From a virus: a stretch of DNA of 64,000 nt. The stretch lies in the IMG/VR virus record IMGVR_UViG_3300009161_000033, positions 28,037-92,036 of that record; one strand, given 5' to 3'. Both the position numbers and the translations under genes were made by a program. Below, in pieces: positions 29,070 through 46,848 of this stretch (position 1 is its first letter; each line of letters begins with the position of its first letter). The notes beneath the pieces are model-generated. The model had not been told where the DNA came from. It saw nothing but the letters and a program-made list of their open reading frames with translations, and searched no databases.

Positions 29070-29859
29070 TAAATTTTTATTTACCATTCCAAAAGGAAAC
29101 AAAACAATTGATTTACCAATAGAAATTAAATGGGATTTTTATGGTAGAGATGATAGTATTGAACTGTATGAGGAAGAAGTTTTAGTTGATATTATTGGAG
29201 TCCCTAAAGATTTTGAAATTTTAAGATTTAGTCATAATTCTTATATTCCTTATGAAGAAACCGCAATAAAATATGATTTTTATTTTTATAGTGGGGTGTC
29301 AAGTAATGTTAGTGCGTCAACATCAACTGATTGGGTTAATAGTTATTTAGCTGAAGGATTTCAAGCTGATGAAGTGTATTACTACACCAAACCATTTACT
29401 AAGTCATTTTTTAAACTTGATTTTTACGATACTAAAGAAGCCCAAAGTCAAACAAATTATTTTACAATTATAATACCTGTACAACAAGGTGCGACTGAAA
29501 ATGTAAGTATTTCACCACTAACCCCTAATGTTAATATTAGAATACCATCATATAAATTAGATTTTGTTGGAGATAAGGAAGGGTTTTTTATTTATTGGTT
29601 AAAAAATGAATTATTCCTTAACATTGATACTTTTTATATGACCGCAAAATTCTTTGACGGTAGATTAGGTGTCTTTGTTAAGATGATGAACGAACCACAA
29701 TCATCGTTACCTGATAAATTCAACTTTGACGCTAGCCGTTATTTTTATAACAAAGTGGTTTTAGATTACACAACAAAAACTTATGAAGTGTTTAATTATT
29801 TAGATAACCGAATAGGTACGGGAACACCGATAAAATGGTATGAATATGTTAACCCATAA
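29062..29859 (+). CDS. Putative baseplate/tail structural protein
   Basis: Overlapping GTG start; SFFKLDFYD motif; tail operon context. Confidence 0.55.
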   Translation: MSNKFLFTIPKGNKTIDLPIEIKWDFYGRDDSIELYEEEVLVDIIGVPKDFEILRFSHNSYIPYEETAIKYDFYFYSGVSSNVSASTSTDWVNSYLAEGFQADEVYYYTKPFTKSFFKLDFYDTKEAQSQTNYFTIIIPVQQGATENVSISPLTPNVNIRIPSYKLDFVGDKEGFFIYWLKNELFLNIDTFYMTAKFFDGRLGVFVKMMNEPQSSLPDKFNFDASRYFYNKVVLDYTTKTYEVFNYLDNRIGTGTPIKWYEYVNP

Positions 29860-31046
29860 TGGACGATAGATATTACAGTATACGAATTTCACCTGAAGTT
29901 ATTCGTGGGGATTTATTCACGACACCGTATAATGCGGGGTATTCTCAATTTAATTTAAGTGGAGACCCATGTTGTGATACAACCACAACAACAACGACAA
30001 GTCAATACACTGGATTTACCTATGTTTATTCATCAATGACTCAAGTCTTGACAGGTGGTACAGATGGGACATCTTTATTAACAGGTTTAACTCTACCAAT
30101 TTTTCTTACTGAGAATACGGTTGATATTGGATATTATTCGGTATTTGACGGAATGGTTACTCAAAAAGATACCATGACAAACTTTTTGTTTTCTGCAACA
30201 ACATACGACCCGTTTACATATTATTTTTATAATACATCAGATACAGAATTTAAAAAATATCTTGCCTTTGCCACCTATCAGATTGATTGGGGGGATAGTT
30301 CACCAAGTGAAATAGTTAGTACTACTTCTCCGAGTTATTACAGTCATACTTACGCGTCTGCGGGTGTTTATACGATAACAATGTCGGGGATGAGTCCTTG
30401 GGGTTATAATGTAATTAAAAAAGATGTCACAGTTCCGTTCACAAATGTTGTTGCAACCAACCCTAATGGGACTGCCTATTTTTACCCATCAGGAGGTAAT
30501 TGGACAGGAACACCATTAATGTATGATTACATATTCACAGGAGATTCTAATTGTGATATATATGACCAATCAAGTTACAATTATACAACAGTACCATTCT
30601 TAGTTACAGGGTATACAAATTCAACCATGAGTGATTTAGTTCAATATGGAAGTAAGTACGACCCAACAAGATTTTCAGGTAAGTACAAACTTGGAGTACA
30701 GGTAACAGGAACGTCAGGGAGTATTGGAACATTTTGGGGTCCATCTGTGGATAACTTATATACTGCCTATACAATTAATGACATTAACTACTATGATTAT
30801 AATGACGGAACAACAATTTTTACGGTTTATTCATCAGGGATGACACCTGACATGATGGTTTGTTCGGCAATAACAAAAAATGAGGTATTATTAAACGTAA
30901 TTGATGAAGCAGAAATACAATCCAATGTATTTATAGAACGAGGGAAGAACTCTGTTTTAGAAAGGTTGGAGAGATTAGGTGAAGTTGATAATGTTGGAGA
31001 CCTTGAAAAATACGGATACAAATTCTTTAATGTAATTAATATATAA
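29859..31046 (+). CDS. Virion protein with PKD-like domain and poly-Thr tract
   Basis: YQIDWGDSS...SHTYASAGVYTITM (PKD pattern); CCDTTTTTTTS. Confidence 0.6.
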   Translation: MDDRYYSIRISPEVIRGDLFTTPYNAGYSQFNLSGDPCCDTTTTTTTSQYTGFTYVYSSMTQVLTGGTDGTSLLTGLTLPIFLTENTVDIGYYSVFDGMVTQKDTMTNFLFSATTYDPFTYYFYNTSDTEFKKYLAFATYQIDWGDSSPSEIVSTTSPSYYSHTYASAGVYTITMSGMSPWGYNVIKKDVTVPFTNVVATNPNGTAYFYPSGGNWTGTPLMYDYIFTGDSNCDIYDQSSYNYTTVPFLVTGYTNSTMSDLVQYGSKYDPTRFSGKYKLGVQVTGTSGSIGTFWGPSVDNLYTAYTINDINYYDYNDGTTIFTVYSSGMTPDMMVCSAITKNEVLLNVIDEAEIQSNVFIERGKNSVLERLERLGEVDNVGDLEKYGYKFFNVINI

Positions 31047-31047
31047 T

Positions 31048-31956
31048 ATGGCAACAGGAACATACGGAACAATAAGACCAGCTGATGTATCACCCGAAGA
31101 TGTGGACATCATCTTAAACTACACCCCATCAAGAGATGAGACTGATAATTTTGTGTTAACTAAATTAGACGCTCCGTCTATTTTAAAACCATATTTTAAT
31201 AATGCTGATACGGGAGGTAATGCAGGTATTGAAATTTTAGGTGGGTTATACAACTTAAAATTACCTGCGGACCAATTTAATAAGATTGGTATCTACACAT
31301 TATTGATTAGACCTGCTCAAATTAGAACTACGATTTTAGATTGTGGGGTTTTATCGGCATTACCTAATGTTAGAGGGGTTGTAATTGACTTAAACTCAGT
31401 CCCAACACAATATAGAAATAAATTTATTAACCAAGGTTTAGTTGGATTTAGAATTGAATACTTAAATTCTGACGGGACTAAAATCCCTAACTTTTTTAGA
31501 TTGATTACCTCATCTTTCTTTTGTGAACCTGTTGTTCAAAATTTAACTAACACATCACAGAAAGCTATTAGATATAGATATACTGATAATAATACTAATT
31601 TAATATTTTGTACCTTATCACCATCTTCGGCACCAACAAATAAACCGAATTCTATTCCGTATATTGGTCAACCCGACCAAAGTATTATTATTACAAATAC
31701 ATTCTTCAATCCAATAACATTAGATGTTGAGATTGCAGAACATGACTTCTCAACGTTAGCAATTGCATTATTTGGTAATCAAACTAAATCAATTGATGAT
31801 GGTATCTACACATTATACGATAGTCAAAATAACATCTACAAACAATACAACTTGTATGAAATTAGAGACCAATTTAATGAGTTGTTGTATGAGGTTAGAC
31901 AAGATAGAGGGGATAATATTGATTTTAGTAAAAACTTTACAAACATTACACAATAA
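31048..31956 (+). CDS. Conserved structural protein (tail/baseplate)
   Basis: Coupled ORF in the tail operon; no family recognised. Confidence 0.55.
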   Translation: MATGTYGTIRPADVSPEDVDIILNYTPSRDETDNFVLTKLDAPSILKPYFNNADTGGNAGIEILGGLYNLKLPADQFNKIGIYTLLIRPAQIRTTILDCGVLSALPNVRGVVIDLNSVPTQYRNKFINQGLVGFRIEYLNSDGTKIPNFFRLITSSFFCEPVVQNLTNTSQKAIRYRYTDNNTNLIFCTLSPSSAPTNKPNSIPYIGQPDQSIIITNTFFNPITLDVEIAEHDFSTLAIALFGNQTKSIDDGIYTLYDSQNNIYKQYNLYEIRDQFNELLYEVRQDRGDNIDFSKNFTNITQ

Positions 31957-34900
31957 TGGCGGTTAAAAAATATACTTGTCCACCACAATCAGCAACAGGT
32001 GCTGGTACATTCTCTGACAACTTAGTTGGACTACAACTTGTTGCGGGAGGAGGTCTTACGCAAGGAAATTTTAATTTTATAACGTCAACTAATGAAAAAA
32101 CTAATAGAACTTTTAGTACAGGTACTTTTTCGGACCCTATTAATTTAGATTCATTAGGGATTAATAGTATTAATCAATCAAAATCAATTGTTGAGAATAA
32201 TTTTAAAGTTTACCCTAACTTTGACTTAAGTCAGGTTACTAACTTCACAATGTATGGGTCAATGAGTAAAAGGATGTCAGCATCTATTACAACAATCATT
32301 AGTTATTTCCCTGCAGGTATTGAATCTACATACATGGGGTCTAATTATGTTTCAGGTCCTACTGCGGTTAATATTGTTTATAATATCACTGATGATGAAA
32401 CTAGTTTTGATTTAGACGTAACAAGATTACGTAATCCATTTGATGTTGATTTTACAACTAACTCAACAAGAAATTTACAATTAAAGGAAGTACAAGTTTC
32501 ACCATTAAGAGACATGACACTTCAATATACAAAATACTCATTATATTTTAAAGGTGACGGGTATAACGTCACAGGTATTGTCCCAACTACGGGATTAACT
32601 AACGGAACATTAAAAGTATATGTTACTGGAAACCCATTCTCAGGTGAACCCATCACTAATGAAAACTTGGTCATTAGACCAAATGACATGGAGGTTAATA
32701 AAGTATTTAACGAAGAACTTGATGAGGTTGAAAATTTCTTATTAAACCGAAACGTTACTCCTAAATACACATCGGTATTTAAAGTTCCGAGAGAAAATGA
32801 GGACGGTACTTATTATATACAAAATTTGAATACCACATGGCCATTATATGGTAGTTGGAATATTGACATTGTTACTAAAGCGTTCTCAAGTTATTTGACA
32901 ATTATTAACGATGTAAGTGATTCTTTTGATTTATATAAAACAAATTTAGTTTCTAGATTTTTAACAACGGGGGCTTTTAAAGAGTTTGATACTTCGGAAC
33001 ATAAAGTTGAAAAGGTATTACAAGTTTACGGTAAAAGTTTTGATGATATTAAAAAATATATCACCGCATTATCATTCATGACCTCGGTTAATTATAATGT
33101 TGGTAATGACATACCATCACAATTACTTAAAAATTTGGCACAAACTCTTGGATGGGCCACAAACATTTCACCAATATCTGAAACTGAATTATTAAATTCT
33201 GTGTTTGGGGAGAAAAATAGTAACACATCGGTTTACCCTGGAGTATCTCAAGAACAAACACCCGACTCATTAAATTACCAATACTATAGAAATTTAATAT
33301 TAAACTCTGCTTATCTATTTAAATCTAAAGGAACAAGAAAATCTATTGAAATTTTATTAAGATTGATTGGTGCTCCCGAAGCATTAATTGAATTTAATGA
33401 ACATGTTTATTTGGCAGACCAAAAAATTAATTTAAATCAATTTAATACTCAATTTGCTCAAATCTCAGGTGGTACATATGTCCAACAGATACCTATTTTG
33501 GATTCTACAGACATATACTCTATCTTTGGTTTACCATATACTGGATTCACAACAACTAGTGATATACAAGATGTTAACATCACCATAGATGAATACCCAA
33601 TGGATAGTTATGGGTTTCCCATGACACCGACTAATTCAGAAAGTTACTTTTTCCAAATGGGTAGTGGATGGTTTGAACAAACACCACAACACAGAGCTCC
33701 TGAACAAGTTGATTTAACAAATAGTATTTTTGTAGGTAATAACCCTAATTATCAAACAGTTTTAATGCCATATTCTTATGGTCAAGAATATCTAAATAGA
33801 TACCGAAAATTCCCATTTATGAATTTAGGTTACCAATTAACAAAAGCGATTGATAATAATAAAAGTTGGGTTGATAATGAAGTAGGTATTAGAAGTAATC
33901 TTGATGGTAATTTTAATGCCAGATATTATACCTCAGATGAACGTTTAGTCTTGAACGTTAAAAATGTGGATTTGTTTATGAATCCTGCTCAAGGTATCGC
34001 TTATGACATATGGTATATGTCACAACAATATAATTACCCAATACCTAATGAAGGATTAAATTACGTTACCCCAACATATTGTGACCCAAAACCGTATTCA
34101 CCATATCCAAGTATAGGAGGTGTGGATTGGACTGAAATTAACCCACAACCAAAAAGAAAAACTTTCTTTGAGTTTGCTCAAACGTTTTGGTTGAATACTA
34201 TCAATGTTAGAAACAGACAATTCTCATCTAACGGAAAGACAGGGGGATACCCAACATTGGAGTCTATTTTTTGGAGATACTTACAATCAGACGAAACAAT
34301 CGGGATACCAAATGACAATTTCACATATAAAACTATGATGGAATATGTTAACGGTTTAGGTGATTATTGGATTAGATTAATTGAACAAATGGTTCCAGCA
34401 ACCACTATTTGGAATACAGGTGTTAAACTTGAAAACTCAATTTTTCATAGACAAAAATTTGTTTGGAGAAGACAAGAGGGTTGTCAATTAATTAAAGTTC
34501 CATGTAAACCATGTTCAATAATATCAAATCTATTTGATTATGATTGTCCGTTAGAGTCGGTTGAATGTCCTATTTATCCATGGACCAATAACCCAACGAT
34601 TCAGGATTTTGGAGGTGTGTTAGGTCAATTATTAACTAATTATTTAACCGCTAATAGTTATAGTTTAAATGATTGTGATTTTAACGGAATGACAACCGAA
34701 TGGTTTGTTGACTTACAGTTAAATGATTATAGTGTGGTGAGGTATTCATTCTTTAATGGGATTGGATATAGTAGTCCTATTTATAGTACACCAACAACTT
34801 CACAATGGAATTCGGGTCTTTTAATTGCTTTGAACAGTTTAGAAGATAATGGTTATGGTTATTATTTAACAAATACCAACACAGTTATTGTATACAACCA

Positions 34901-34976
34901 ATCATGTTCACAATTAACTAATGGTATTAATTTTAAACTGAATGTTGGAATAAACTTTAAAATCTTATGTAGTTAA
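31956..34976 (+). CDS. Baseplate wedge protein (T4 gp7/P2 gpI-like)
   Basis: LLKNLAQTLGW ... AYLFKSKGTRKSIEILLRLIG is the gpI/gp7-type KGT motif. Confidence 0.7.
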   Translation: MAVKKYTCPPQSATGAGTFSDNLVGLQLVAGGGLTQGNFNFITSTNEKTNRTFSTGTFSDPINLDSLGINSINQSKSIVENNFKVYPNFDLSQVTNFTMYGSMSKRMSASITTIISYFPAGIESTYMGSNYVSGPTAVNIVYNITDDETSFDLDVTRLRNPFDVDFTTNSTRNLQLKEVQVSPLRDMTLQYTKYSLYFKGDGYNVTGIVPTTGLTNGTLKVYVTGNPFSGEPITNENLVIRPNDMEVNKVFNEELDEVENFLLNRNVTPKYTSVFKVPRENEDGTYYIQNLNTTWPLYGSWNIDIVTKAFSSYLTIINDVSDSFDLYKTNLVSRFLTTGAFKEFDTSEHKVEKVLQVYGKSFDDIKKYITALSFMTSVNYNVGNDIPSQLLKNLAQTLGWATNISPISETELLNSVFGEKNSNTSVYPGVSQEQTPDSLNYQYYRNLILNSAYLFKSKGTRKSIEILLRLIGAPEALIEFNEHVYLADQKINLNQFNTQFAQISGGTYVQQIPILDSTDIYSIFGLPYTGFTTTSDIQDVNITIDEYPMDSYGFPMTPTNSESYFFQMGSGWFEQTPQHRAPEQVDLTNSIFVGNNPNYQTVLMPYSYGQEYLNRYRKFPFMNLGYQLTKAIDNNKSWVDNEVGIRSNLDGNFNARYYTSDERLVLNVKNVDLFMNPAQGIAYDIWYMSQQYNYPIPNEGLNYVTPTYCDPKPYSPYPSIGGVDWTEINPQPKRKTFFEFAQTFWLNTINVRNRQFSSNGKTGGYPTLESIFWRYLQSDETIGIPNDNFTYKTMMEYVNGLGDYWIRLIEQMVPATTIWNTGVKLENSIFHRQKFVWRRQEGCQLIKVPCKPCSIISNLFDYDCPLESVECPIYPWTNNPTIQDFGGVLGQLLTNYLTANSYSLNDCDFNGMTTEWFVDLQLNDYSVVRYSFFNGIGYSSPIYSTPTTSQWNSGLLIALNSLEDNGYGYYLTNTNTVIVYNQSCSQLTNGINFKLNVGINFKILCS

Positions 34977-37600
34977 TGTCTTGTTTATTGACTTATACAA
35001 ATAGTATAACAGGTGACTGTTTAAATGATTTATCGGGTGCGTTTAGCATTGATATTGCAGGTAGTGCTCCTGATTACAGTATTGAATGGATTAGTCCTTT
35101 TATAGGAACCATCTTTTTGGGACCTGGAGTTAGTAATTATACTCAAACAGGGTTATCAGGTGGGACATACTCGTTCAACATCATTGATAGTTGTTCCCCG
35201 ACAAATACGACATTAGCGGTGAACGTAAATATTTCCACAGGGACTTGTGTGAGTATTACAAGTGAGACAAATACTGTATGTGGTTTAAATAACGGAGCCT
35301 TAACTGCTACTACAACCAACATGTATTCCGAAGCTAAATTTTATTTATATGAATATAGTTCAGGTTATATAACTTCAGGAACAAGTTTTACAGAATCTTA
35401 TAGTTTTGGTTCTTTATCAGGAGGAACATATTATGTGATTGCGGATGACGGAGGAGGATGTACGGGTAAATCTGAGACATGTATTATTAAAGAATCAAGT
35501 CCTCTTGAAATTGGTTTATATGTTATTAATGATGCGGGATGTGCCGTTAATTCAGGTGCTATTTATATCACAGGATTAACAGGTGTACCACCTTACACTT
35601 ATTTATGGAGTAACGGTGGAACATTACAATCAATAACGGGTTTAACTGCTGGACCTTATAGTGTTACTGTTACAGATAGTTCGGGGTGTGCTCAAAGTAG
35701 TGGTGTTACAGTTAATACAGTACCCCCCATTGGATTAGGTGCGTTTACTGTTGTAACTCCAAGTTGTTTCGCTTCTGACGGTGAAGTAACCGTGACAATA
35801 ACAGGTGGGACTGCTCCGTTTTATTATTCAGGTTCAAATGGAACAGTTGCGGTTAGTTTTGCAACTTCTTATACTTTTGTTGGTGTTCCTGCAGGAATGT
35901 TTTCAGTACATGTAACTGACTCGGGATTATGTAGTTTTACTTCGTCAACAACTTTATTAACACCTGGTGGGTTAACCGTAACGTCTGTTAATATTACAAA
36001 TTCAGTATGTAATGATAGTTCGGGTAAAATTAAAGTTATTATATATGGAGGTTCACCACCATACACTTATACATTAACGGATTCATTAGGTAATCCAACT
36101 GTTATTACAGGAAGTTTTACTAGTTGGACATTTAATGGATTACCATCGGACACTTACACTTTAACAATTTCTGATAGTGGCCCTTGTACGTTTACTCAAG
36201 AGTATGTTGTAGATAATACTGTTTTATTTGAATTGACAGTTGATACAACAGGGACAACTTGTAATTTAAATGATGGTCAAGTTACTCTAAATATTACTAC
36301 GGGAGGAGTTGGACCATTCCAATATGAGATTGATGGACAAACAACGTATTCTAACGATTATACATATACCTTTATTGATTTAATTTCAGGTAGTTATACG
36401 GCAACCGTAACGGATACTAACGGATGTGCACAAATTGTACCATTCAATATAGGGAGCTCAAGTAATGTTGATTTTGTTCTTATTGGAACAGATTCTACAG
36501 ATGGAACCAATGGTTCTATAACCGCGTTTATAACTAGCGGAGAACCTACATTTACATGGGAATGGAGTACCAATGTTAATGGTCAAACAGGTTTAACAGT
36601 TAGTAATTTATCTGCGGGAACATATAGTTTATCAGTAACCGATTTTAATGGATGTACACTAATCAGAGAGATTATTATTAATGGGTTCAATGAGTTATCC
36701 TCGTATCAAATTTTTAATATTTGTGATGACGACTTTATAAATACAGGTCAGACGATTAGGAAGGGACCTCAACAAATGTTAAATGAAGGTTTTTATGATT
36801 TAACATTATTGGATACTAATTGCATATTAAATCAAGCAATATTCACGGCTCAGGTAACTGTTAGTGGGGTAACCCAAGAAAATTCATTTTATACAGGTAA
36901 TACCTTGAGTGATTATCCGTCAGATAGTTTATTCTATAATACGGTCAACGATTTATTGATTTCTTATGAAGGTATTGGTGACGTGGTAATTGATTATGTA
37001 AATAATATAATAACCGTAAGTACAGATTGTGATTCTTCAGTTTCTTTAAATGACGCTGATGTTAAAATTGATTTAAAAATATCTTATGATATTAACTGCC
37101 AAATATGTGGAATTAATTTAACGCCCACACCAACAGTAACGCCAACAAATACGATAACACCAACAGTAACACCAACAAATACAATAACTCCAACAATTAC
37201 TCCAACACCAAACCTTAGTCCTACCCCTACCCCTACTATAACACCAACAAATACTATAACACCTACTATAACACCAACTATTACTAAAACTCCTACGGTA
37301 ACTCCTACTATTACTAAAACACCTACGGTAACTCCTACTATTACTAAAACACCTACACAAACTAAAACACCAACACCAACAGTTACTCCGACACCGACAA
37401 CTAGTTGTATCCGATACTTAGTTAAAGGTAATAATATTGGTGCAACCTATGATTTTAAACCTTGTTGTGGTGAAACATTAATACCACCATTTATTGACAA
37501 TAGTCCTGGAACAAATTATTATATTTGTTCATCAAATGGTATTACGGTGACTAATGGAACCGCTACGGTAGTTAATGTTGGAGTATGTCCGAGTTGTTAA
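34976..37600 (+). CDS. Tail fibre/adhesin with SprB repeats, long Thr-Pro tract and Cys-rich C-terminal module
   Basis: Repeats such as GVPPYTYLWSNG..SITGLTAGPYSVTVTDSSGC, ITGGTAPF, GGSPPYTY; ~95-aa TPTITPT tract. Confidence 0.75.
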   Translation: MSCLLTYTNSITGDCLNDLSGAFSIDIAGSAPDYSIEWISPFIGTIFLGPGVSNYTQTGLSGGTYSFNIIDSCSPTNTTLAVNVNISTGTCVSITSETNTVCGLNNGALTATTTNMYSEAKFYLYEYSSGYITSGTSFTESYSFGSLSGGTYYVIADDGGGCTGKSETCIIKESSPLEIGLYVINDAGCAVNSGAIYITGLTGVPPYTYLWSNGGTLQSITGLTAGPYSVTVTDSSGCAQSSGVTVNTVPPIGLGAFTVVTPSCFASDGEVTVTITGGTAPFYYSGSNGTVAVSFATSYTFVGVPAGMFSVHVTDSGLCSFTSSTTLLTPGGLTVTSVNITNSVCNDSSGKIKVIIYGGSPPYTYTLTDSLGNPTVITGSFTSWTFNGLPSDTYTLTISDSGPCTFTQEYVVDNTVLFELTVDTTGTTCNLNDGQVTLNITTGGVGPFQYEIDGQTTYSNDYTYTFIDLISGSYTATVTDTNGCAQIVPFNIGSSSNVDFVLIGTDSTDGTNGSITAFITSGEPTFTWEWSTNVNGQTGLTVSNLSAGTYSLSVTDFNGCTLIREIIINGFNELSSYQIFNICDDDFINTGQTIRKGPQQMLNEGFYDLTLLDTNCILNQAIFTAQVTVSGVTQENSFYTGNTLSDYPSDSLFYNTVNDLLISYEGIGDVVIDYVNNIITVSTDCDSSVSLNDADVKIDLKISYDINCQICGINLTPTPTVTPTNTITPTVTPTNTITPTITPTPNLSPTPTPTITPTNTITPTITPTITKTPTVTPTITKTPTVTPTITKTPTQTKTPTPTVTPTPTTSCIRYLVKGNNIGATYDFKPCCGETLIPPFIDNSPGTNYYICSSNGITVTNGTATVVNVGVCPSC
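37121..37403 (+). repeat. Coding Thr-Pro repeat (TPTVTPTNTI / TPTITKTPTV)
   Basis: Tandem 12-30 nt repeats, e.g. CCTACGGTAACTCCTACTATTACTAAAAC x2. Confidence 0.9.
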
Positions 37601-37773
37601 TCTTTAGGAATAGTTTTACCAATATTACTATAAAGTTTCATTAGTTTAAGAGATTCATTATAGTTTTTTTCTAACCTATCAAGTTCTTTTTCACTAACCC
37701 CCCTTTCAGCCGCCTCATCAAGAGCTCGTTGAGATTCTACGACTAATTTTGATATTGTTTTGAGTAATTTCAT
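37597..37773 (-). CDS. Small 58-aa protein missing from the ORF track (MKLLKTISKLVVESQRALDEAAERGVSEKELDRLEKNYNESLKLMKLYSNIGKTIPKD)
   Basis: Translated by hand; fills the gap exactly; minus-strand TATTTAT (37779-37785) lies 5 nt before the ATG. Confidence 0.7.
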   Translation of the reverse strand: MKLLKTISKLVVESQRALDEAAERGVSEKELDRLEKNYNESLKLMKLYSNIGKTIPKD

Positions 37774-37844
37774 ATATTATAAATATCTCCCAGCACACCA
37801 TTTATTAAAAATAAATGTTTTCTATTTTTAAAATAAACACTTTT

Positions 37845-38825
37845 ATGAAATATGATTTAGTATTTGTTACCGCACAACCTGATGTCCCGTATTTTCATTG
37901 GCAGGCAAAAGTTTACTCTTATAATTTTATTGAATTAGGAATTAAACCTGAACAAATACACATTGTATTTGGTATTGTAAATGGTAACACAGAACCAACT
38001 AAAGAGTCTTTAGAATTAAAAGAAATGGGGGTAAATGTACATCATTATTTAGATGAAAGAGAACACAGACATTATATCCCAAATATTAAACCATTTTTAG
38101 TTTCTAAATGGATTAAAGATTATCCTGAACTTGGTAAATGTTTCTTTTTACATGATGCCGATATTATTTTTAGAGTCTTACCTGATTTTGAAAAATTATT
38201 ATCTGATGATATATCATATCTGTCAGATACTAAAGGTTATATAGGGTATGATTATATTAATAGTTGTTGTGAACGATATGAAAAACAACACCCATCATCA
38301 AATAAAGGTCAATTAATTCAAGAAATGGCTGACGTTATTGGAGTTACTGTTGATTGTATTAAATGTAATCAAGAAAATTCAGGTGGTGGTCAATACATTA
38401 TTAAAAACACCAATTATGAAGTTTGGGATAAAATTTATAAAGATTGTACTCCTTTGTATGACCAAATGAAAGATTATCATATTAGATTCCCAATAGCACC
38501 TGGTGAAATACAGTTTTGGACTGCAGAAATGTGGTCATTATTGTGGAATCTTTGGTTGTTTGATATTGAAACACAAATAACTAATGACCTTAGTTTTTCT
38601 TGGGCGACAGATAATATAATGTTATATGAAAAACATCCAATCTTACATATGGCGGGGGTTACACATGATTTAAAATCAACAAAATTTTATAAAGGTGAAT
38701 TTATCAATATTAACCCATTGAATAAATTAAAAGAGAATATTGATTACTTCAACTATGTTGACAAGAATAGTGCAACAATAAAATATATTGAGATAATGAA
38801 AAGGATTGTAAAAAATCAATTCTAA
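37845..38825 (+). CDS. GT-A glycosyltransferase resembling peptide O-glycosyltransferases (SGT1/HPAT, GT96/GT95-like)
   Basis: YFHWQ, YIPNIKP...W, DxD motif LHDADIIF, GGGQYII, WTAEMWS, ILHMAG. Start probably ATG 37845 rather than 37815. Confidence 0.7.
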   Translation: MKYDLVFVTAQPDVPYFHWQAKVYSYNFIELGIKPEQIHIVFGIVNGNTEPTKESLELKEMGVNVHHYLDEREHRHYIPNIKPFLVSKWIKDYPELGKCFFLHDADIIFRVLPDFEKLLSDDISYLSDTKGYIGYDYINSCCERYEKQHPSSNKGQLIQEMADVIGVTVDCIKCNQENSGGGQYIIKNTNYEVWDKIYKDCTPLYDQMKDYHIRFPIAPGEIQFWTAEMWSLLWNLWLFDIETQITNDLSFSWATDNIMLYEKHPILHMAGVTHDLKSTKFYKGEFININPLNKLKENIDYFNYVDKNSATIKYIEIMKRIVKNQF

Positions 38826-38840
38826 ATGTATTTATCGTAG

Positions 38841-40268
38841 ATGAGTAATAAAACCCCATATCAAATCACTGAAGAAACATCTTGTATACCAACAGGTGTT
38901 AATGAATGTAATGTTATCACCTTATTTAAAATGGGTGTTGAATGTAATGTTGTTCATCCGTCATATCCTGAAGCAACTGACGGAACCGCGTCTTTAGTTA
39001 TTACAGGAGGTACACCACCTTATTTTATATTATGGGAAAATGGAAATGTTGGACCCTCAATCAGTAACTTAAGTGCTGGTTCATATCAAGCAACAGTGAT
39101 TGATTATTATGGTGATTTCAGTGCAAATACAACTTGTGTTTTAACGGGAGTAACACCAACAACAACAACGACCTCAACTAGTACCACATCACCATACCCT
39201 AATGAATATGAATTATGTATGGTTACCAATATGTTGGCACGAGGAGGTTATGTTGAAACTCAAACGCATTTTAACCCAAATGGAATTTATGATGGAAAAC
39301 CAATGTGGATATCGGATGATAGTCAGCAATCAATTATATGGGATAATACTAATTCTCAATGGTTGGTATCAGCGGCAACACCAACACTTTATGTTATATC
39401 AAATCTTAACCCAACTTACCCTCCAATATATGGTAGTTGGTTTTTAATTGGTGCGACAGGTAGTGTTATAGTTTATGAAGGACTTTGTCAAACATTTCCT
39501 GTTGGATTAAGACAACTTAGAGGTACTGAAATGTCTACACCTTTAACAATGAATGTTACAAAAAATCAAACAATATGCGGATGTGATGGAGGATTAACAA
39601 TAACCGCGAATGGGGGAACACCACCTTACAGTTATTCTATAGATTCAGGATTAACATATAAAAGAATTCCAATCTTTACTAATTTATGTTCGGGGTCTTA
39701 TAACGTTGTTGTTACAGATAATAATGGTATTATAACAAGTTCAAATGTTATATTAAATCAACCATCAAAACCAACAACATACGTTGTTTCATTAAATACA
39801 ACATCTGAGATTACTGAAAATTCAAGTAACAGAGTTGGTAAAACATATACGACAACTTTATCAGTAATACCAAGTCTACCTGATGGTGTTGTAATAAGTT
39901 TTGATTTAACACATTTAAATCTGACAAAAATTTCACCAAACAAAGAATCTGCGGAAGTCATAACGAAATCATTACTTTATTTAAATGGGGATGATTATTA
40001 TCCTAATACTGACGTTATTAGTGATAAAACAAATAGCACTAAGGTTGGATGTCAAAATGAACCCGTTTATATCACATCAACAGTGGATTCTTGGAGTACT
40101 AAAGGTAGTTTATCTGTAGATAATCAAACTAAATTTATACTAACAACTAATACTATCATCAGTAAAAATGAAGACAATAACTGTTATTTAGTTTCAAGTG
40201 ATGAAACATATTCGATTAGTAATCTTAGAGTAAGAGGGTGTAGTTGTTGTTCAGTAATAACAGAATAA
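38841..40268 (+). CDS. Virion adhesin with SprB repeats and poly-Thr linker
   Basis: ITGGTPPYFILWENG..ISNLSAGSYQATV; ANGGTPPYSYSIDSG..FTNLCSGSYNVVVTD; TPTTTTTSTSTTSP. Confidence 0.7.
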   Translation: MSNKTPYQITEETSCIPTGVNECNVITLFKMGVECNVVHPSYPEATDGTASLVITGGTPPYFILWENGNVGPSISNLSAGSYQATVIDYYGDFSANTTCVLTGVTPTTTTTSTSTTSPYPNEYELCMVTNMLARGGYVETQTHFNPNGIYDGKPMWISDDSQQSIIWDNTNSQWLVSAATPTLYVISNLNPTYPPIYGSWFLIGATGSVIVYEGLCQTFPVGLRQLRGTEMSTPLTMNVTKNQTICGCDGGLTITANGGTPPYSYSIDSGLTYKRIPIFTNLCSGSYNVVVTDNNGIITSSNVILNQPSKPTTYVVSLNTTSEITENSSNRVGKTYTTTLSVIPSLPDGVVISFDLTHLNLTKISPNKESAEVITKSLLYLNGDDYYPNTDVISDKTNSTKVGCQNEPVYITSTVDSWSTKGSLSVDNQTKFILTTNTIISKNEDNNCYLVSSDETYSISNLRVRGCSCCSVITE

Positions 40269-40295: not shown

Positions 40296-42998
40296 ATGGG
40301 ATTTATAATAAAAAATACGTCAGGGTTAATTAATACAAGATTGACTGACACAGGTAGACAAAAGTTATCACAAGGTAATTTTAATATATCTTACTTCCAA
40401 ATTGGGGATAGTGAGGTATCGTATAATACACTACCAACAAGTTATAATCAATTTGACACTGTTGTATTAGAGCCCGCATTTAACGCCCAAAATTCAAGTG
40501 GGGTTCCTGAATCAAATAAGGAGAACGTTAAGTATCCTTACTATGTTGATGGTTTTACAGGTAATACTTATGGAATTCCGTTCATGGATTCAGTAGTTTC
40601 ACCCGTTTATAATAGAGCGGTTATGAGAGGATTTTTTACAGGTGATACTACCGCGACAACTATTAATTGGAGTGCGTTAACTAATAATTTTTATGCTATT
40701 AACGCTAACTATGTGGTTCAGATGAATACCTTATCAGGTACAAATGAAATTACATTAATTAGTAATATTAGTAATCCTGATTTTGTTAGAGAACCTGCAA
40801 TTGGTGATATCATCACAATTTATTATGATGGTAAAGGATTGGAAAACTGTTACTGTATTAATTTACCAACACCAACACCAACACCAACAACTTCAATGAC
40901 ACCTTCAGTGACTCCAAGTATTGACACAACATCAACCCCAACACCAACTCCATCATCAACAAATTCGTATCCTTGTGATTCACCTACACCCACACCAACA
41001 CCATCTAAGACACCTTGTTTCACACCAACACCAAGTAGACAATGTCCACTTCCATCACCACCCGATTGCTTAGTTGATATGGATAGTTGTTATTCAATGT
41101 TAACTTATAAGATTGTTGATATTTGTTTAGATGTAATAACATTAGATAGACCGACGCCTGACTTCTCAACAGTAACTAATGAATGTTATGGTAGAGTAAT
41201 TGTTTACCCACCTAATATGACAACAATTTACGATAGTATTACACCTAATCGTCATTGGAATGATAACGTTATTAATTTTGAATCAGTTTGTTATACTGAT
41301 GAATTTGACGTTAAAGTTTGGAACATGAACATTCCATGGTCAGAGAATCCTGCAGGATTAATCTCATCTATTAATAAAGATTATACTAACTTTGGTTCCG
41401 TTGCTTATTTAGGGACTAAAGAATATTTTGGGTACGCGTCAAGTAGTGGTCAAACTGATAGTAGTTCTGTTTACTATGTTAATTCATTTGGGGACATTGT
41501 TACGGTTAAACCTGAACAACAAAAAGCCATTGCAATTATTCATTATACAAATCAAACAGTTGATTTCTTCTATGGTGAAAAATTTGCTTTAGAACCATAC
41601 GACCCTTCTAACCCTACTGATACAACAGGACAAGCAAGAAACTTTAAATTACACATTCCTTGGTTAATGTGGCATAAAAATCCTGAATGTTGTAATGGAC
41701 AAACATTTTGGGTTGACCCTCCAGGGTTTGATGAATTAGACCTATTCCAAGTTCAGAATTTACAATCAACTAAAAATGTTGATATGAATTCACCTGGTAT
41801 TAGATACTATCATCTATGGGATACAAATCCTAATATTGATGGTTATCCTAATAGAATTGGTAAAGTATTTCCTGATGATAAATTAGTAATTATTGATGAT
41901 GAGGAAATCATTGCGGCAATGTCTTACAAATCAAACCGAAATTGGACTTTACCATCACCAAAAATTTCATTAATAACACCAAATACTTGTGGTAATGATA
42001 GTACAAGTGTTACGGGTATTTTAACAGGTAATACAGAATATTTGTATGTTACTTATAGATTAAGTAATGATAGTGGGTTTACAAACTCACTACATTGTAA
42101 CTATTACTCATTAATCCAAGGACCGAACATCGATTGTTCCCCAACTACGTCACAAAATGTGGCAGTTAGATTCGGAGGAGAATTCGGTTGTTTAAGTACG
42201 GATTTCCCAATAACCACAACAACAACTACTTTACCACCTTGTGATTGTTATGAAGTAACGGGTGAGGTTGGTTGTCCCATTGAATATACTGATTGTTATG
42301 GAGTACCGACTAGTTATAATTTAACTGCAATTACGGAAAACATTTGTTCAGTAACTACCCCAACATCTTCGTGTGAAACATGGTCAGTTATTGATTTAGG
42401 TTTATGTAGTGAATCAGTTGATTGTGGTAATTTTACAACAACCACGACAACTTGTCCCCCAATCTGTAATGTTAATCAAGGGTTTTCAGCAACCAAGTTT
42501 GAAATTATATGTCAAAAAGTTGATGGTACAGGAAGACCAAATTCATCTGAATGGAAAATTATTGATTTTACAGACCAATTATCGGCAACTACAGTTACGG
42601 TCAATTCGTATATCACTCAAAGTGGTTTAACAGGTAATACATTTGTTATTACTCAACAAGAATATGATGATGCACCAACTTATAACCTAAATGACTATAT
42701 TTCATTAACACCTGTTGGTTATACAGGAACTTCACTTAATTTTGGTGATGAATATTACTTCTATGGTTCGTTGGAAACTGATATTGAAGCGACCATCTAT
42801 GAGATGAGATATAAGATTAACTTAGGACAGGCTGAGTTCCAAAGTACATCAAATCCTACATGGACAAATGGTAATCCTTCTTACGTTACTGAAATTGGTC
42901 TTTACGATTCTAACAAAAATCTTATGATTATATCAAAAATGCAATCACCTATCTTAAGACAAGGTATTCAGCAGTTTTTGATTAAATTTGATATTTAA
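40296..42998 (+). CDS. Tail-collar/fibre-attachment protein with Thr-Pro and Cys-rich inserts
   Basis: N-term LTDTGRQKL...YFQIGDSE and C-term YVTEIGLYD...ISK..PI resemble the phage tail-collar fibre domain; internal PTPTPT and TTTTT tracts. Confidence 0.65.
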   Translation: MGFIIKNTSGLINTRLTDTGRQKLSQGNFNISYFQIGDSEVSYNTLPTSYNQFDTVVLEPAFNAQNSSGVPESNKENVKYPYYVDGFTGNTYGIPFMDSVVSPVYNRAVMRGFFTGDTTATTINWSALTNNFYAINANYVVQMNTLSGTNEITLISNISNPDFVREPAIGDIITIYYDGKGLENCYCINLPTPTPTPTTSMTPSVTPSIDTTSTPTPTPSSTNSYPCDSPTPTPTPSKTPCFTPTPSRQCPLPSPPDCLVDMDSCYSMLTYKIVDICLDVITLDRPTPDFSTVTNECYGRVIVYPPNMTTIYDSITPNRHWNDNVINFESVCYTDEFDVKVWNMNIPWSENPAGLISSINKDYTNFGSVAYLGTKEYFGYASSSGQTDSSSVYYVNSFGDIVTVKPEQQKAIAIIHYTNQTVDFFYGEKFALEPYDPSNPTDTTGQARNFKLHIPWLMWHKNPECCNGQTFWVDPPGFDELDLFQVQNLQSTKNVDMNSPGIRYYHLWDTNPNIDGYPNRIGKVFPDDKLVIIDDEEIIAAMSYKSNRNWTLPSPKISLITPNTCGNDSTSVTGILTGNTEYLYVTYRLSNDSGFTNSLHCNYYSLIQGPNIDCSPTTSQNVAVRFGGEFGCLSTDFPITTTTTTLPPCDCYEVTGEVGCPIEYTDCYGVPTSYNLTAITENICSVTTPTSSCETWSVIDLGLCSESVDCGNFTTTTTTCPPICNVNQGFSATKFEIICQKVDGTGRPNSSEWKIIDFTDQLSATTVTVNSYITQSGLTGNTFVITQQEYDDAPTYNLNDYISLTPVGYTGTSLNFGDEYYFYGSLETDIEATIYEMRYKINLGQAEFQSTSNPTWTNGNPSYVTEIGLYDSNKNLMIISKMQSPILRQGIQQFLIKFDI

Positions 42999-43001
42999 TA
43001 T

Positions 43002-43604: not shown

Positions 43605-43629
43605 TATCTGTTAAATAACCGATAATCTG

Positions 43630-43662
43630 AAATATCGTCTCTTTGGACGATATTTTTGTTTT
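43630..43662. terminator. Terminator between convergent genes (probably bidirectional)
   Basis: AAATATCGTC-TCTTTG-GACGATATTT, T-run on + strand. Confidence 0.8.
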
Positions 43663-44675
43663 TAACAAGGTACAATATTTAATATTAAACCTGTTGGGTC
43701 AACCTGTAATGAATATTTATTTGTTGGGATAGTATAGTCCTGTAATACACCACCCCATACAGAAATCCAATTATTTCCACCATTAATAGGACTTCCTACT
43801 GGAGTTGTATTATCTCGTAGGATTTGACCAACGGCAAATGACGATGTTGTGGTGTAAGACCTTTCGGCGATAATGCTTGAACATGAAGTACCACTACTTG
43901 AATAAATAGTATCACTTCCTGGTAAACATGAACCACCTGATGTAGGGATTGCACCTATATAAAAGACTGCTTTTATTAGAGAAGGTACAGGTGAAATTGG
44001 ATAACCACCTGATGAAGAAATTATTGTAAATCTCATAGCTTTTTGACCGTAAACAATTGGACCGACTCTACTAGTTGTTCCTGTAATTTCACCAACACCT
44101 AAAGAATCTAAAGTAACCGTAAATGTTGATGTTACACTTTCCGTTAAAGTTATTGAGTTCATAACCGTTGTCCCTGTCATTGAGTTTAATCCATCCCAAT
44201 CTACTTGTATTGTTAGAGTATCAAAAGGGACTCCTAATAATGACGCTTGTCCTGAAAAAAGTGAAAGAGAACTAAAAGCATTTATATAATATGATGAACC
44301 ATACGATGTAAATCTCGTATCAGCGATTCCTGATGGACTTGGAGTTATTGTTGGAGTTATTGTTGGAGTTATTGTTGGTGTTGGAGTTATTGTTGGTGTT
44401 GGGGTCAATGTTGGAGTTACTGATGGGGTTGGACTTGAAGGAAGTTCAATACAACTAAACGTTTCAAATCTCTCACATCCATCCATAGTTATTATTTTAA
44501 TACCTACCGCAGGTGCCGTATTAAACTGATATGGTAAAATTATTGTATTTGAAGGAGGAACTGTTGTACCTATAGAAGCAACAATAATACAATTATTACC
44601 ATACACATCACAAGCATAAACTGTGTATGGTGTTGTAATACTACCTGTTATTGATGTTATTTCTATAGATGTCAT
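43662..44675 (-). CDS. Virion-type protein: small Ig-like N-domain, Thr-Pro linker, C-terminal domain
   Basis: PSSPTPSVTPTLTPTPTITPT tract; N-domain paralogous to 46630-46848; start probably ATG 44675, just after the upstream stop. Confidence 0.6.
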   Translation of the reverse strand: MTSIEITSITGSITTPYTVYACDVYGNNCIIVASIGTTVPPSNTIILPYQFNTAPAVGIKIITMDGCERFETFSCIELPSSPTPSVTPTLTPTPTITPTPTITPTITPTITPSPSGIADTRFTSYGSSYYINAFSSLSLFSGQASLLGVPFDTLTIQVDWDGLNSMTGTTVMNSITLTESVTSTFTVTLDSLGVGEITGTTSRVGPIVYGQKAMRFTIISSSGGYPISPVPSLIKAVFYIGAIPTSGGSCLPGSDTIYSSSGTSCSSIIAERSYTTTSSFAVGQILRDNTTPVGSPINGGNNWISVWGGVLQDYTIPTNKYSLQVDPTGLILNIVPC

Positions 44676-44677
44676 AA

Positions 44678-46633
44678 TTATACTATTGGACAATTACCCC
44701 CAATACAATCACCGTAAGGAGTTATTGAAGTTATATTTCCTGACGATATAATAAACGGTGTTGTTAATGAACAGAATTTAGGACTTGATGAATAATTATT
44801 TACATGTATTGTCTGTAGAACATTATCACAGTCATAATAAACTACGCTAATACCCGTTGATGTACCTTTAATAGGTCCACTGTTTGATACCGAGTAACAT
44901 TTACAAACTAAAGGAGGGCAAACTCCGTCAGAACAGATACCAAGATTGGTAATCGTAAAAGGATTCAGTGAAGTTCCGATAGGTGTTGTTAATGAACAAA
45001 CATATTGTGGTATAACATCTGAAGTTGTGACATTTTGAGAAATTCCATTACAATCCACGTAAGTGTAATTACAGATTAAGTCACTTATCAATTCATAACA
45101 ATAACAAGGAATACCACTTGGTGTTGGTGTTAAAGTAGGTGTAGGAGTCGGAGTTGAACTTGGAATAACAATACAAGAGAAACAACCTCCTAAATTAGAA
45201 TATCCTAATGGACCATCAATTAAATCAATAGTATTAACCCCAATTATACTGTTATTAACCCCAACGTATGATACACATTTAAGTACGCCATCAATGTATG
45301 CCTTAAATACCATAAATTCTTCTAAAGTATCCCCTGAAGGAGTTGGAACTGAATTTGTTGTATAATACATCATACCGTTAGTACAATCTTGAAATTGTTT
45401 ACTTGTTGGACAATCAAACTGACCATCAACAGTTGTAAATGATACGTCACCTAATACATTACAAGGTCTTGTAACAATAGGGGTTGAACTTGGGGTTACT
45501 GTAGGTGTTGGTGTAGGTGTTGGACTATAACTATTAATTGTTGCGTCAATTGAAACATCAACACAAAGGTCAATTACTGGTGTAGGAGTTGGTGTTGGAG
45601 TATGAGTAGGTGTGACACTTGGTGTAGGAGTTGGCTCAACTAAACAATCAAATATTGCGTCAAAATCAAAAGTAGTACATGCAAGTGTTGTTGTGGTAGT
45701 TGTTGGACAAATACCCTCAAAAAAGTATTCTTCACATAAGTCAGGACATTTTGAAAAACAAGGTGACTTACCTGACAGTAAACAAAAACCACCTAAACTT
45801 GTTGATAAACACCATTGTAAGTCAGTTGTATTGTAATAAATAAAATAGTATCCAGTAGTACTCCTCCAAAAATTGTAACCATCATAAGTACCGTCTAAAG
45901 TATATGTATCATCATAATCATTACCCGTATTAGTAATACAATATTCGTCTGAACATGGGCCACAATTAGGATTTTCTGAACAAAGTCCTAAATTAGTGAC
46001 GACTACAGTACAACTAATGTCAAATGTAGGTTCTGCCAATGAACATAAAGAATTGTTATAACCTTCTAAATTTATAACTATTATACTACCTGTACCACAC
46101 TCTACATATGTTATATCACATCCACCAATGTCATCAACATCTATTTGATAACAGTTACAACAAGGATAATCTATAATACAGGTTGTACAATCGGGATATT
46201 TATAAACAACTTCTCCGTATACTTGATTACCAAGAGGGATAATACTACCATAAACATCAATAGACATTAATGTATAACAACCTAAAATTAGTGATGGTGT
46301 TATACAATCGGCTGCGTTCGTAAATTCGGAAAAACTATAACTCACCCCAATACTTGAAGGTTGGAAAGGAAATGAGACATCATTACTCCCTAATAAATAA
46401 AAAACATCACTACTACAACAACTACTAAAAGAAAATATGTATCTTGTATCCCAAACATCAACAGTCAAATTAGGGTTTGGTACAAAAGTAAGTAAGTCTG
46501 CGGTAATGAAATATTCTTGACTGTCTTGAACAGTTATACTACAAGAGTTACCATTACAATCGGTAAAACTTTGTCCCTGAGGGCCTCCACTACTATTATT
46601 TAGCTGATATGATGAACAAATTATACTACTCAT
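44678..46633 (-). CDS. Cys-rich, Thr-Pro-rich repeat protein (putative fibre/decoration)
   Basis: Multiple CxCY...YxDC.G...CS...LGxC modules and four PT/T tracts. Confidence 0.65.
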   Translation of the reverse strand: MSSIICSSYQLNNSSGGPQGQSFTDCNGNSCSITVQDSQEYFITADLLTFVPNPNLTVDVWDTRYIFSFSSCCSSDVFYLLGSNDVSFPFQPSSIGVSYSFSEFTNAADCITPSLILGCYTLMSIDVYGSIIPLGNQVYGEVVYKYPDCTTCIIDYPCCNCYQIDVDDIGGCDITYVECGTGSIIVINLEGYNNSLCSLAEPTFDISCTVVVTNLGLCSENPNCGPCSDEYCITNTGNDYDDTYTLDGTYDGYNFWRSTTGYYFIYYNTTDLQWCLSTSLGGFCLLSGKSPCFSKCPDLCEEYFFEGICPTTTTTTLACTTFDFDAIFDCLVEPTPTPSVTPTHTPTPTPTPVIDLCVDVSIDATINSYSPTPTPTPTVTPSSTPIVTRPCNVLGDVSFTTVDGQFDCPTSKQFQDCTNGMMYYTTNSVPTPSGDTLEEFMVFKAYIDGVLKCVSYVGVNNSIIGVNTIDLIDGPLGYSNLGGCFSCIVIPSSTPTPTPTLTPTPSGIPCYCYELISDLICNYTYVDCNGISQNVTTSDVIPQYVCSLTTPIGTSLNPFTITNLGICSDGVCPPLVCKCYSVSNSGPIKGTSTGISVVYYDCDNVLQTIHVNNYSSSPKFCSLTTPFIISSGNITSITPYGDCIGGNCPIV

Positions 46634-46848
46634 GATATTATTAATGTTTGAGTGATTATACAGTCATTATTATCTATAACTTTTAAATTAAATTCAGTTT
46701 GGCTTGATAAAATTGAAGGAACCTCAAATGTATATGGTAAACTTGAAATGGTATCCACATAAAAACAAGTTGTTATGGGATTATCGCATAAATAAACATC
46801 AAAAGGGGTTGACCCTGTAATATCGTTAATCGTAATGTCTGTTGGCAT
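46630..46848 (-). CDS. Small 72-aa beta protein (stand-alone copy of the N-domain of 43662-44675)
   Basis: ITINDITGSTPFDVYLCD...C...KVIDNNDC; minus-strand TATTTAT at 46863-46869. Confidence 0.65.
   Translation of the reverse strand: MPTDITINDITGSTPFDVYLCDNPITTCFYVDTISSLPYTFEVPSILSSQTEFNLKVIDNNDCIITQTLIIS

Follow-up and report, generated by a model that had tools for sequence, protein, structure and literature searches.

What does a glycosyltransferase (GT) gene do among the structural genes of a phage, several of which encode tracts rich in threonine (Thr) and proline (Pro)? The question is raised by the virus record IMGVR_UViG_3300009161_000033, a 92-kb IMG/VR contig of which bases 28037–92036, a stretch of 64,000 nucleotides (nt) referred to here as the window, were analysed. 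The open reading frame (ORF) concerned encodes P0001:

37815..38825, plus strand: P0001, candidate protein O-glycosyltransferase of 336 amino acids (aa), identified by a phrog_4417 match, its motifs and a GT-A model

The answer that we consider likely is that P0001, as a member of the phrog_4417 family, O-glycosylates the Thr-rich tracts of virion proteins, and that the phages carrying such enzymes probably sugar-coat their own particles. The main support for this reading is given by the fold and the catalytic-type motifs of the enzyme, the absence of a membrane anchor, a polar and recurrent linkage to genes for Thr-tagged proteins, the loss of the tag in modules lacking the GT, and the fusions and co-occurrence with glycan-building enzymes.

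An earlier inspection of the DNA letters (the sequence-only reading) had listed a set of motifs for this ORF, all of which are present in P0001 in the claimed order: YFHWQ (residues 26–30), YIPNIKP..W (87–99), LHDADIIF (112–119), GGGQY (190–194) and WTAEMW (235–240). In an alignment of 53 diverse homologs, residues Y87, D116, G191, Q233, W240, H278 and G281 are invariant, while Y26, W29, Q30, D114, G190, Q193, W235 and M239 are at least 90% conserved. The quoted motifs therefore correspond to invariant or near-invariant columns and define the family rather than being chance matches. The DxD motif is formed by D114 and D116 in HDADIIF (residues 113–119), after the fourth beta-strand, and is also conserved in 83 fused relatives; the family furthermore shares the invariant H278-x-x-G281. 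Homologs align from about residue 14, and the in-frame ATG at position 37845 is the probable true start. P0001 matches the hidden Markov model (HMM) of phrog_4417, which is annotated as 'unknown function', with an E-value of 2.2e-67 (residues 17–331 on profile positions 3–291 of 293). At 90% clustering the family has 1318 relatives, and at 50% it falls into 807 clusters.

The AlphaFold model of P0001 (pLDDT 95.9, pTM 0.92) consists of a single Rossmann-like alpha/beta/alpha GT-A domain, which, together with the conserved DxD, agrees with the original designation of the ORF as a DxD-containing glycosyltransferase. Foldseek matches of this model include the catalytic domain of UGGT, glycogenin, XXYLT1, LARGE1, WbbM and LgtC (E 5e-7 to 4e-5), and Skp1 AgtA is also among the solved folds close to P0001. 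Leaving aside two uncharacterized proteins from phages, the hits in the viral structure library were for the most part enzymes resembling GT8 and GT6. The model thus predicts, with high confidence as far as the fold is concerned, a soluble GT-A glycosyltransferase closest to the retaining GT8/GT24-type enzymes. P0001 has no match to the Pfam GT8 model (PF01501), the likeness to GT8 being structural only, and PDB sequence searches with P0001 returned nothing by phmmer and only noise by profile. Compared with the GT8/GT24-type retaining GT-A enzymes glycogenin, UGGT, XXYLT1, LARGE1, GlyE and LgtC, the identity is 7–13% with TM-scores of about 0.4, a likeness at the level of the fold only. Among these, GlyE acts in the glycosylation of serine-rich-repeat adhesins. 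With a maximum Kyte-Doolittle hydropathy of 0.94 over 19 residues, P0001 contains no transmembrane segment and would be expected to work in the cytoplasm, the site of tailed-phage assembly.

The gene lies in a baseplate/fibre module in which large structural ORFs run from a baseplate wedge gene down to about 46.6 kb of the window. The position of the wedge gene at the module start indicates that the region encodes virion parts; the tail sheath, the tail tube and further baseplate genes are located elsewhere on the contig. The sequence-only reading claimed Thr/Pro or poly-Thr tracts in six neighbouring virion-type genes, and these were found at coordinates that agree within a few codons. The genes of interest are:

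20312..22150, plus strand: baseplate wedge (gp6-like) gene that opens the baseplate/fibre module (phrog_219, E 4e-24)
29859..31046, plus strand: P0003, structural-module protein of 395 aa, candidate acceptor, with a T7 run in residues 37–51
34976..37600, plus strand: P0002, SprB-repeat/immunoglobulin (Ig)-like structural protein of 874 aa, candidate acceptor (SprB repeat E 3e-17)
38841..40268, plus strand: P0004, SprB-repeat/Hoc-like Ig-domain protein of 475 aa, candidate acceptor, with a TPTTTTTSTSTT tract in residues 101–118
40296..42998, plus strand: P0005, structural protein of 900 aa, candidate acceptor, with Thr-Pro tracts in residues 188–241 and poly-Thr in residues 635–650 and 712–724
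43662..44693, minus strand: P0006, protein of 343 aa, candidate acceptor, with a 33-residue TPT linker (residues 88–120) between two domains
44678..46633, minus strand: P0007, Cys-rich modular protein of 651 aa, candidate acceptor, with poly-Thr and Thr-Pro linkers in residues 307–385 and 490–507
56169..56855, plus strand: ORF of 228 aa, possible further acceptor outside the span claimed earlier, with a T7 run in residues 207–219 near the C-terminus

The longest tract belongs to P0002, in which 98 aa of TPT repeats (residues 714–811, nt ~37115–37408) precede a Cys-rich C-terminal module. As had been claimed, the GT gene comes directly after this gene, with a gap of 214 nt between them. The gap holds an antisense ORF of about 56 aa (37604–37774, minus strand) that, read by eye, is helical-looking and rich in charges. 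When tracts are counted as at least 7 Thr or Pro in 10 residues, they occur in 6 of the 10 non-nested ORFs of the region versus 3 of 61 elsewhere on the contig (Fisher p=1e-4). The tracts are partly encoded by imperfect tandem repeats of 6–30 nt. In 76 of 80 related IMG/VR loci, which form one clade, the tract genes are kept around the GT while the tract length ranges from 10 to 451 aa, a variation that, judged from these sequences, is the behaviour expected of fast-evolving linkers. The SprB repeats of P0002, which are of the Flavobacterium gliding-adhesin type, occur in five stretches, and P0004 matches both the SprB repeat (E 2e-11) and the Hoc-like head decoration family phrog_2973 (E 9e-7), which suggests that both are Ig-like adhesive surface proteins. 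In addition, the tail sheath of 1111 aa encoded upstream (contig G000:C1 17407–20742; L096:408–3743) carries a 40-residue poly-Thr/Thr-Pro insertion at residues 284–323, placing the tag on a core virion protein and not on fibres alone.

A Cys-rich module of about 60 residues (CxC/CC ... C ... CxxxxC) recurs directly after many of the Thr/Pro linkers. It is seen in P0005 at residues ~650–710 (42200–42500), in several copies in P0007 (44678–46200), at the C-terminus of P0002 (37410–37600) and at L095:380–936. The module has no Pfam match and may be a disulfide- or metal-stabilised terminal knob.

The association of the GT with Thr-tagged virion proteins extends to other phages. P0001 homologs with 32–36% identity were found by tblastn in 77 isolated-phage records, whose hosts are mainly Lactobacillus, Enterococcus, Staphylococcus, Lactococcus and Clostridium, with the addition of one Chryseobacterium and one Arcanobacterium phage. 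Poly-Thr tracts are present on neighbouring virion proteins in seven of seven lineages, namely phiFL1A, Lactococcus 1706, Clostridium phiCTP1, Lacticaseibacillus iLp84, Staphylococcus SA2, Lactobacillus LpeD and Chryseobacterium MA9V-3. In phiFL1A, 1706 and phiCTP1 the GT gene directly follows the major tail protein gene, or whichever gene takes its place; a short poly-Thr ORF separates the tail-tube gene from the GT in SA2, and in iLp84 the GT comes after the capsid gene and a small poly-Thr protein. The tagged proteins are the capsid and tail tube (at their C-termini) in phiFL1A, 1706 and iLp84, the tail tube (C-terminus) and a protein of the protease/capsid region in SA2, and the portal-position, head and tail-tube-position proteins in phiCTP1. 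Small decoration-like proteins with 60–80 Thr-rich residues are found in iLp84, SA2 and LpeD, and in the Chryseobacterium phage poly-Thr occurs in two ORFs upstream of the GT. The Thr-Pro fibre linkers of the sequence-only reading are thus a feature of the window, whereas most other carriers bear poly-Thr C-terminal tails on capsid and tail-tube proteins.

Orthologous modules provide a control. Six phages with tail tubes 36–60% identical to phiFL1A gp50 have no GT by tblastn (two Streptococcus prophages, Pediococcus cIP1, SPP1, Lactobacillus phiJL-1 and Lactobacillus Bassarid), and none of the six has a poly-Thr tail on its tail-tube or capsid protein. Their gene order is tail tube, chaperones and tape measure, and their capsid proteins end a few residues past the conserved EIPEGVVEATI, where phiFL1A adds about 25 Thr-rich residues. 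A polar arrangement is also evident in 80 bacterial-genome loci, which are probably mostly prophages and come from several phyla. Thr-tract ORFs make up 36 of 140 ORFs (25.7%) within 1 kb upstream of the GT, 5 of 166 (~3%) at 3–6 kb upstream (p=4e-9 versus the 1-kb upstream bin, the p-values being optimistic as many of the 80 loci are related prophages) and 1 of 111 (0.9%) within 1 kb downstream. Phylogenomic linkage to Thr-Pro-tract genes, the absence of which had been named beforehand as an argument against the proposal, therefore recurs in independent lineages and is backed by ortholog controls.

These comparisons bear on the explanation that the GT merely hitch-hikes, being an unrelated accessory gene in modules whose Thr tracts are a linker or compositional trait of the structural-gene lineage. 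Low-complexity linkers are common in fibre proteins, the 80 IMG/VR loci represent a single clade and many of the prophage loci are mutually related, all of which would fit such an explanation. However, the GT and the tags are found together in phages of unrelated morphotypes and from different host phyla, the tagged proteins belong to different families (capsid, portal-position protein, tail tube, sheath, decoration proteins and fibres), and the capsid and tail-tube orthologs of GT-less phages stop exactly where the poly-Thr extension of phiFL1A starts; hitch-hiking is regarded here as very improbable. A compositional artefact was ruled out, since an AT-rich genome (the window DNA has a GC content of about 32%) would not itself favour Thr/Pro runs.

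In LpeD, orf68 (L088:14452–14856), located directly upstream of the GT homolog, was annotated by its depositors as 'glycoprotein (EHV-1 gp2-like)', a name that evidently stems from its mucin-like Thr/Ser repeats, and a GT2 gene (orf81) is found about 8 kb downstream. A GT 63% identical to P0001 lies beside a poly-Thr ORF on L103 (CAYGYN010000024.1, 5.3 kb), a contig labelled as a Candidatus Woesearchaeota archaeon metagenome-assembled genome, which is most likely a mis-binned contig of the phage clade to which the window belongs.

The functions most often associated with phage GTs are DNA glucosylation and serotype conversion (PMC12619734), and P0001 could likewise modify the phage DNA (giving hypermodified bases) or a host envelope polymer (teichoic acid, lipopolysaccharide or capsule, as in receptor masking), with the tracts serving as unmodified flexible linkers. 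The phage belongs to the T4-like group, in which DNA modification occurs; the fold matches of P0001 include LgtC and WbbM, enzymes that make lipooligosaccharide and O-antigen, and some cellular relatives have no Thr-tract neighbour. Nevertheless, in lytic as well as temperate phages, and with Gram-positive as well as Gram-negative hosts, the GT is part of late structural modules and comes directly after Thr-tagged genes; GT and tags are gained and lost together in orthologous modules, and the upstream polarity is strong. P0001 is moreover soluble, lacks a membrane anchor and has relatives fused to protein O-GT families (O-FucT, GT60). The alpha- and beta-glucosyltransferases of T4 have a GT-B fold. 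T4-type DNA GTs are accordingly two-domain GT-B proteins, in contrast to the single GT-A domain of the P0001 model, and a DNA glucosyltransferase of the T4 alpha-GT/beta-GT type was ruled out by fold and context. Gtr-type serotype conversion was ruled out by the lack of a membrane anchor and the location in a late structural operon. Overall, a DNA or envelope target for P0001 seems improbable.

The sequence-only reading further proposed that the enzyme resembles the plant and algal SGT1 and HPAT glycosyltransferases. The Pfam HPAT model (PF23452) has no match on the window contig or in five carrier phage records, and it gives weak matches in 2 of 53 members of the P0001 family (E 0.09). Membership of DUF7164, suggested by an Atlas search, was not confirmed, the DUF7164 model having no match on the contig and the carrier records. 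Because neither model matched there, a single-model HMM search is judged too insensitive for the relationship between HPAT and P0001. By language-model features (Atlas), HPAT is the nearest named family, accounting for 19 of 30 named neighbour clusters, one of which has 58% HPAT-positive members. Two bacterial proteins pass the curated cut-off of PF23452, and hhalign aligns the P0001 family to them with probabilities of 88% (E 3e-6, 270 columns) and 76% (E 2e-5, 252 columns), and to a 27-sequence alignment of PF23452-labelled proteins with 70% (E 4e-5, 274 columns). HMM-to-sequence scores reach 25 bits. The P0001 family and the Pfam-HPAT proteins have the collinear motifs PYxxWQ, YxxxxKP, DxD, WxxD/EM, HxxG/Q and FxKxxYxPW in common. 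Furthermore, a folded bacterial PF23452 protein (pLDDT 92.4) finds as its best viral structural match A0A6J5SW30 (E 6e-10, about 200-fold better than the next), which is a P0001-family protein and also the best viral match of P0001 itself (E 9e-33, TM 0.85–0.90).

Taken together, sequence profiles and predicted structures support, with moderate strength, a distant relationship of P0001 to the HPAT (GT95/GT96-like) family, of which it is not a member by Pfam criteria. The homology was obtained with bacterial HPAT-family proteins and not with the plant enzymes. Of the proposed likeness to SGT1 and HPAT, a distant relationship is therefore retained (hhalign probabilities, reciprocal structure match and language-model features), while the PF23452 threshold is missed. 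Plant and algal HPAT1-3 (GT95, PF23452) and SGT1 (GT96) are peptidyl O-glycosyltransferases whose substrates are extended, low-complexity tracts rich in Pro that occur in extensins and peptides, and the P0001 family is alike in its motif set. They are initiating peptide transferases of two related families, GT95 and GT96, and in plants these enzymes reside in the Golgi as type II membrane proteins (PMC8012813); in a passage of PMC4738400, the HPAT family is called plant-specific. P0001 differs from these membrane-anchored Golgi enzymes in being soluble and free of transmembrane segments. The acceptors also differ, being hydroxyproline (Hyp) or Ser for HPAT/SGT1 and presumably Thr here, and the phage has no evident prolyl hydroxylase.

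P0001 relatives are often the N-terminal module of longer proteins, the fusion partners of which include PF11397 (GT60), O-FucT, GT2, GT6, GT25, Glyco_transf_7C, methyltransferase and radical-SAM/SPASM domains. On the phage contig itself, a row of glycan genes (G000:C1 1–6484, locus L095) lies about 22–28 kb upstream of the window:

G000:C1 1–936: Thr-Pro-tract ORF in the glycan-gene row
G000:C1 994–2241: PF11397 GT60-type GT (E 3e-72)
G000:C1 2605–3426: weak GT2-like protein
G000:C1 3430–4119: FkbM methyltransferase
G000:C1 4121–4807: Methyltransf_24 protein
G000:C1 4811–6484: HtrL/YibB-like protein with a C-terminal extension

The GTs and methyltransferases of the contig, together with the HtrL/YibB-like protein, provide the parts for a multi-step, methylated glycan. 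PF11397/GT60 is the family of polypeptide Thr/Hyp alpha-N-acetylglucosamine transferases. With such an enzyme encoded on the same contig, and fused to P0001-type domains in relatives, the tracts could be glycosylated by a division of labour in which the first sugar is added by the GT60-type enzyme or another GT and P0001 then lengthens the glycan by acting on a sugar acceptor; the glycan-extending enzymes Skp1 AgtA, XXYLT1, LARGE1 and LgtC among its closest solved folds would be in line with this role. In phiFL1A, 1706, phiCTP1 and SA2, however, the P0001 homolog follows the tail-tube position (in SA2 after the intervening short ORF) and no other GT is annotated in these structural modules. 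The P0001-type domain is, in addition, usually the N-terminal module in fusions, and its nearest named relatives, HPAT/SGT1, initiate peptide glycosylation (PMC8012813). A purely extending P0001 is considered unlikely.

In the preferred reading, in which P0001 itself glycosylates the tracts, P0001 would be a soluble, cytoplasmic, metal-dependent (DxD) enzyme that works late in infection and moves a sugar from a nucleotide-sugar donor onto the Thr hydroxyls of poly-Thr/Thr-Pro tracts in the structural proteins of its own phage. The proposed acceptors are the fibre-like and Ig-like proteins of the window and the tail sheath encoded upstream on the contig. The GT60-type GT, the weak GT2-like match, the HtrL/YibB-like protein and the two methyltransferases would probably extend and methylate the glycan, so that the virion surface would display glycosylated, mucin-like linkers and tags, for which stiffening, resistance to proteases, shielding or adhesion to the host may be the purpose. 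What we infer from the data above are the acceptor residue, the donor sugar, the place of P0001 as glycan initiator and the biological role of the glycan, and a retaining mechanism may be assumed by analogy with the GT8/GT24 folds.

The closest precedent is found in mycobacteriophages. Passages of PMC12619734 and PMC12363180 describe virion glycosylation at the C-termini of capsid and tail-tube proteins in Che8, Corndog and Myrna (Freeman et al. 2023). In these phages, phage-encoded GTs and methyltransferases decorate the C-termini of their own capsid and tail-tube proteins, and the Firmicutes carriers of the P0001 family likewise tag those C-termini, while the contig studied here similarly encodes several GTs and methyltransferases. 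The enzymes themselves are unrelated, as hhalign of the P0001 family against Che8 gp108, gp109 and gp110 gives probabilities of 0.1–0.3%, and none of the 77 records with a P0001 homolog is a Mycobacterium phage. The capsid and tail-tube C-termini of Che8 are not poly-Thr, and in the phage studied here the GT stands within a structural module beside its presumed acceptors, with the window tracts being internal linkers of fibre-like proteins. The P0001 family is thus distinct from the mycobacteriophage enzymes and has another acceptor tag, and its host range is much wider. Glycosylation in the mycobacteriophages has been shown experimentally, whereas the P0001 system is known here from genes and models. 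In the eukaryotic Chlorovirus PBCV-1, capsid glycosylation involves A64R and other virus GTs, whose likeness to P0001 is at fold level only, and no Thr-tract tags are present; the capsid glycans of PBCV-1 are atypical N-linked ones. A literature search on poly-threonine/threonine-rich phage glycosylation retrieved no paper describing a P0001-type system.

Several points weigh against the glycosylation of Thr tracts by this family. Structural genes cluster, so that co-location inside one genome is by itself weak evidence, and the p-values given above for the prophage loci should be read with their relatedness in mind. The window tracts are mostly internal Thr-Pro linkers, whereas the best-controlled cases are poly-Thr C-terminal tails, and the claim is extended from the latter to the former. 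A GT8-like fold leaves the acceptor open, with LgtC and WbbM acting on glycans; a Pfam search of P0001 gives nothing at E<=1, and the curated thresholds of every Pfam and NCBIfam model are missed. The link to HPAT is drawn from moderate hhalign probabilities (70–88%), and for the family as a whole the glycosylation claim is built on sequence, predicted structure and genomic linkage. Finally, in 42 of the 80 bacterial-genome loci the GT, mostly a fused form on a Bacteroidota chromosome, has no Thr-tract gene beside it, and the family is thus not exclusively tied to Thr-tagged virion proteins. The tie between GT and tract genes drawn by the sequence-only reading stands in the phage lineages, but the family also has a cellular branch without such neighbours.

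In this cellular branch, eight tract-less loci were examined; the GT ORF spans 316–711 aa in the six where it was flagged, five of which are longer fusions in Bacteroidota chromosomes. The loci discussed here are:

L124:2562–10107: Chitinophaga niastensis locus, in which the C-terminal half of the fusion matches Glyco_transf_7C
L143:6001–8123: Elizabethkingia ursingii locus with a LanC-like neighbour
L164:2707–8136: Sphingobacterium locus with a neighbouring ORF that contains a Walker-A-type GSGKST motif

The P0001-type domain is N-terminal in these proteins of 451–711 aa, and Thr-tract genes are absent nearby. In the two tract-less loci scanned with Pfam (L124 and L143), LanC-like genes adjoin the GT, and L124 also contains radical-SAM and GT1 genes. 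The LanC association suggests peptide substrates, similar to those of ribosomally synthesised and post-translationally modified peptide (RiPP) pathways, and this branch may represent an undescribed class of glycosylated RiPP cluster. Nearly all bacterial HPAT-family proteins found carry a C-terminal PqqD-type domain (PF05402; proteins P0279–P0398; locus L183:1006–2139, minus strand), which the NCBIfam PqqD peptide-chaperone models match weakly. The PqqD fold is the leader-peptide recognition element of RiPP pathways. The domain architecture of these HPAT-PqqD fusions suggests that Pseudomonadota, Myxococcota and Nitrospirota have peptide glycosyltransferases akin to the plant HPATs. These bacterial proteins are rare, occurring in 1 of 201 sampled Myxococcota genomes, the one already known.

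As to the phage itself, the CheckV completeness estimate of the contig is 31%, which makes it probably a jumbo phage. T4-type replication genes are present, including those for a single-stranded DNA-binding protein, a UvsX-like recombinase, a DnaB-like helicase and a ribonucleotide reductase. The SprB repeats in P0002 and P0004, together with the Chryseobacterium phage as the best isolated-phage match of the GT, suggest a Bacteroidota host. No match to isolated phages was obtained when 10 kb of the window were used in a megablast search. The contig also encodes a sigma-70-type factor, an SNF2-type helicase and an Fe/Mn superoxide dismutase (Sod_Fe_C, E 3e-39), the last of which is unusual among the auxiliary genes of phages.

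Beyond the single phage, the evidence appears evenly poised on a broader proposal, namely that a widespread and undescribed code exists in which capsid, tail-tube, sheath, decoration or fibre proteins bear a short, genetically portable poly-Thr/Thr-Pro tag that a dedicated soluble HPAT/SGT1-like enzyme of the phrog_4417 family recognises in phages of Bacillota, Bacteroidota and Actinomycetota and in aquatic jumbo phages. The superfamily would then include bacterial RiPP-type peptide GTs (the HPAT-PqqD and LanC-associated fusions) as prokaryotic and viral kin of the supposedly plant-specific extensin GTs.

To our knowledge, experimental evidence of virion glycosylation is confined to some actinobacteriophages, in which the modification alters recognition by antibodies. 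If the proposal is true, many phages would carry glycan coats that annotation has missed, given a family of more than 800 clusters at 50% identity and a simple Thr-rich tag. Among them would be phages that infect Enterococcus, Staphylococcus, lactic acid bacteria and Clostridium as well as abundant aquatic jumbo phages, so that the question would be testable with phages that have already been isolated. Such coats would bear on phage therapy, through immunogenicity, clearance and mucus adherence, on dairy phage biology, and on the reading of cryo-EM density and anomalous gel mobility. The pairing of a tag with its enzyme would in addition offer a compact cytoplasmic system for glycoengineering, and the plant extensin glycosyltransferases of GT95 and GT96 would gain prokaryotic and viral relatives.

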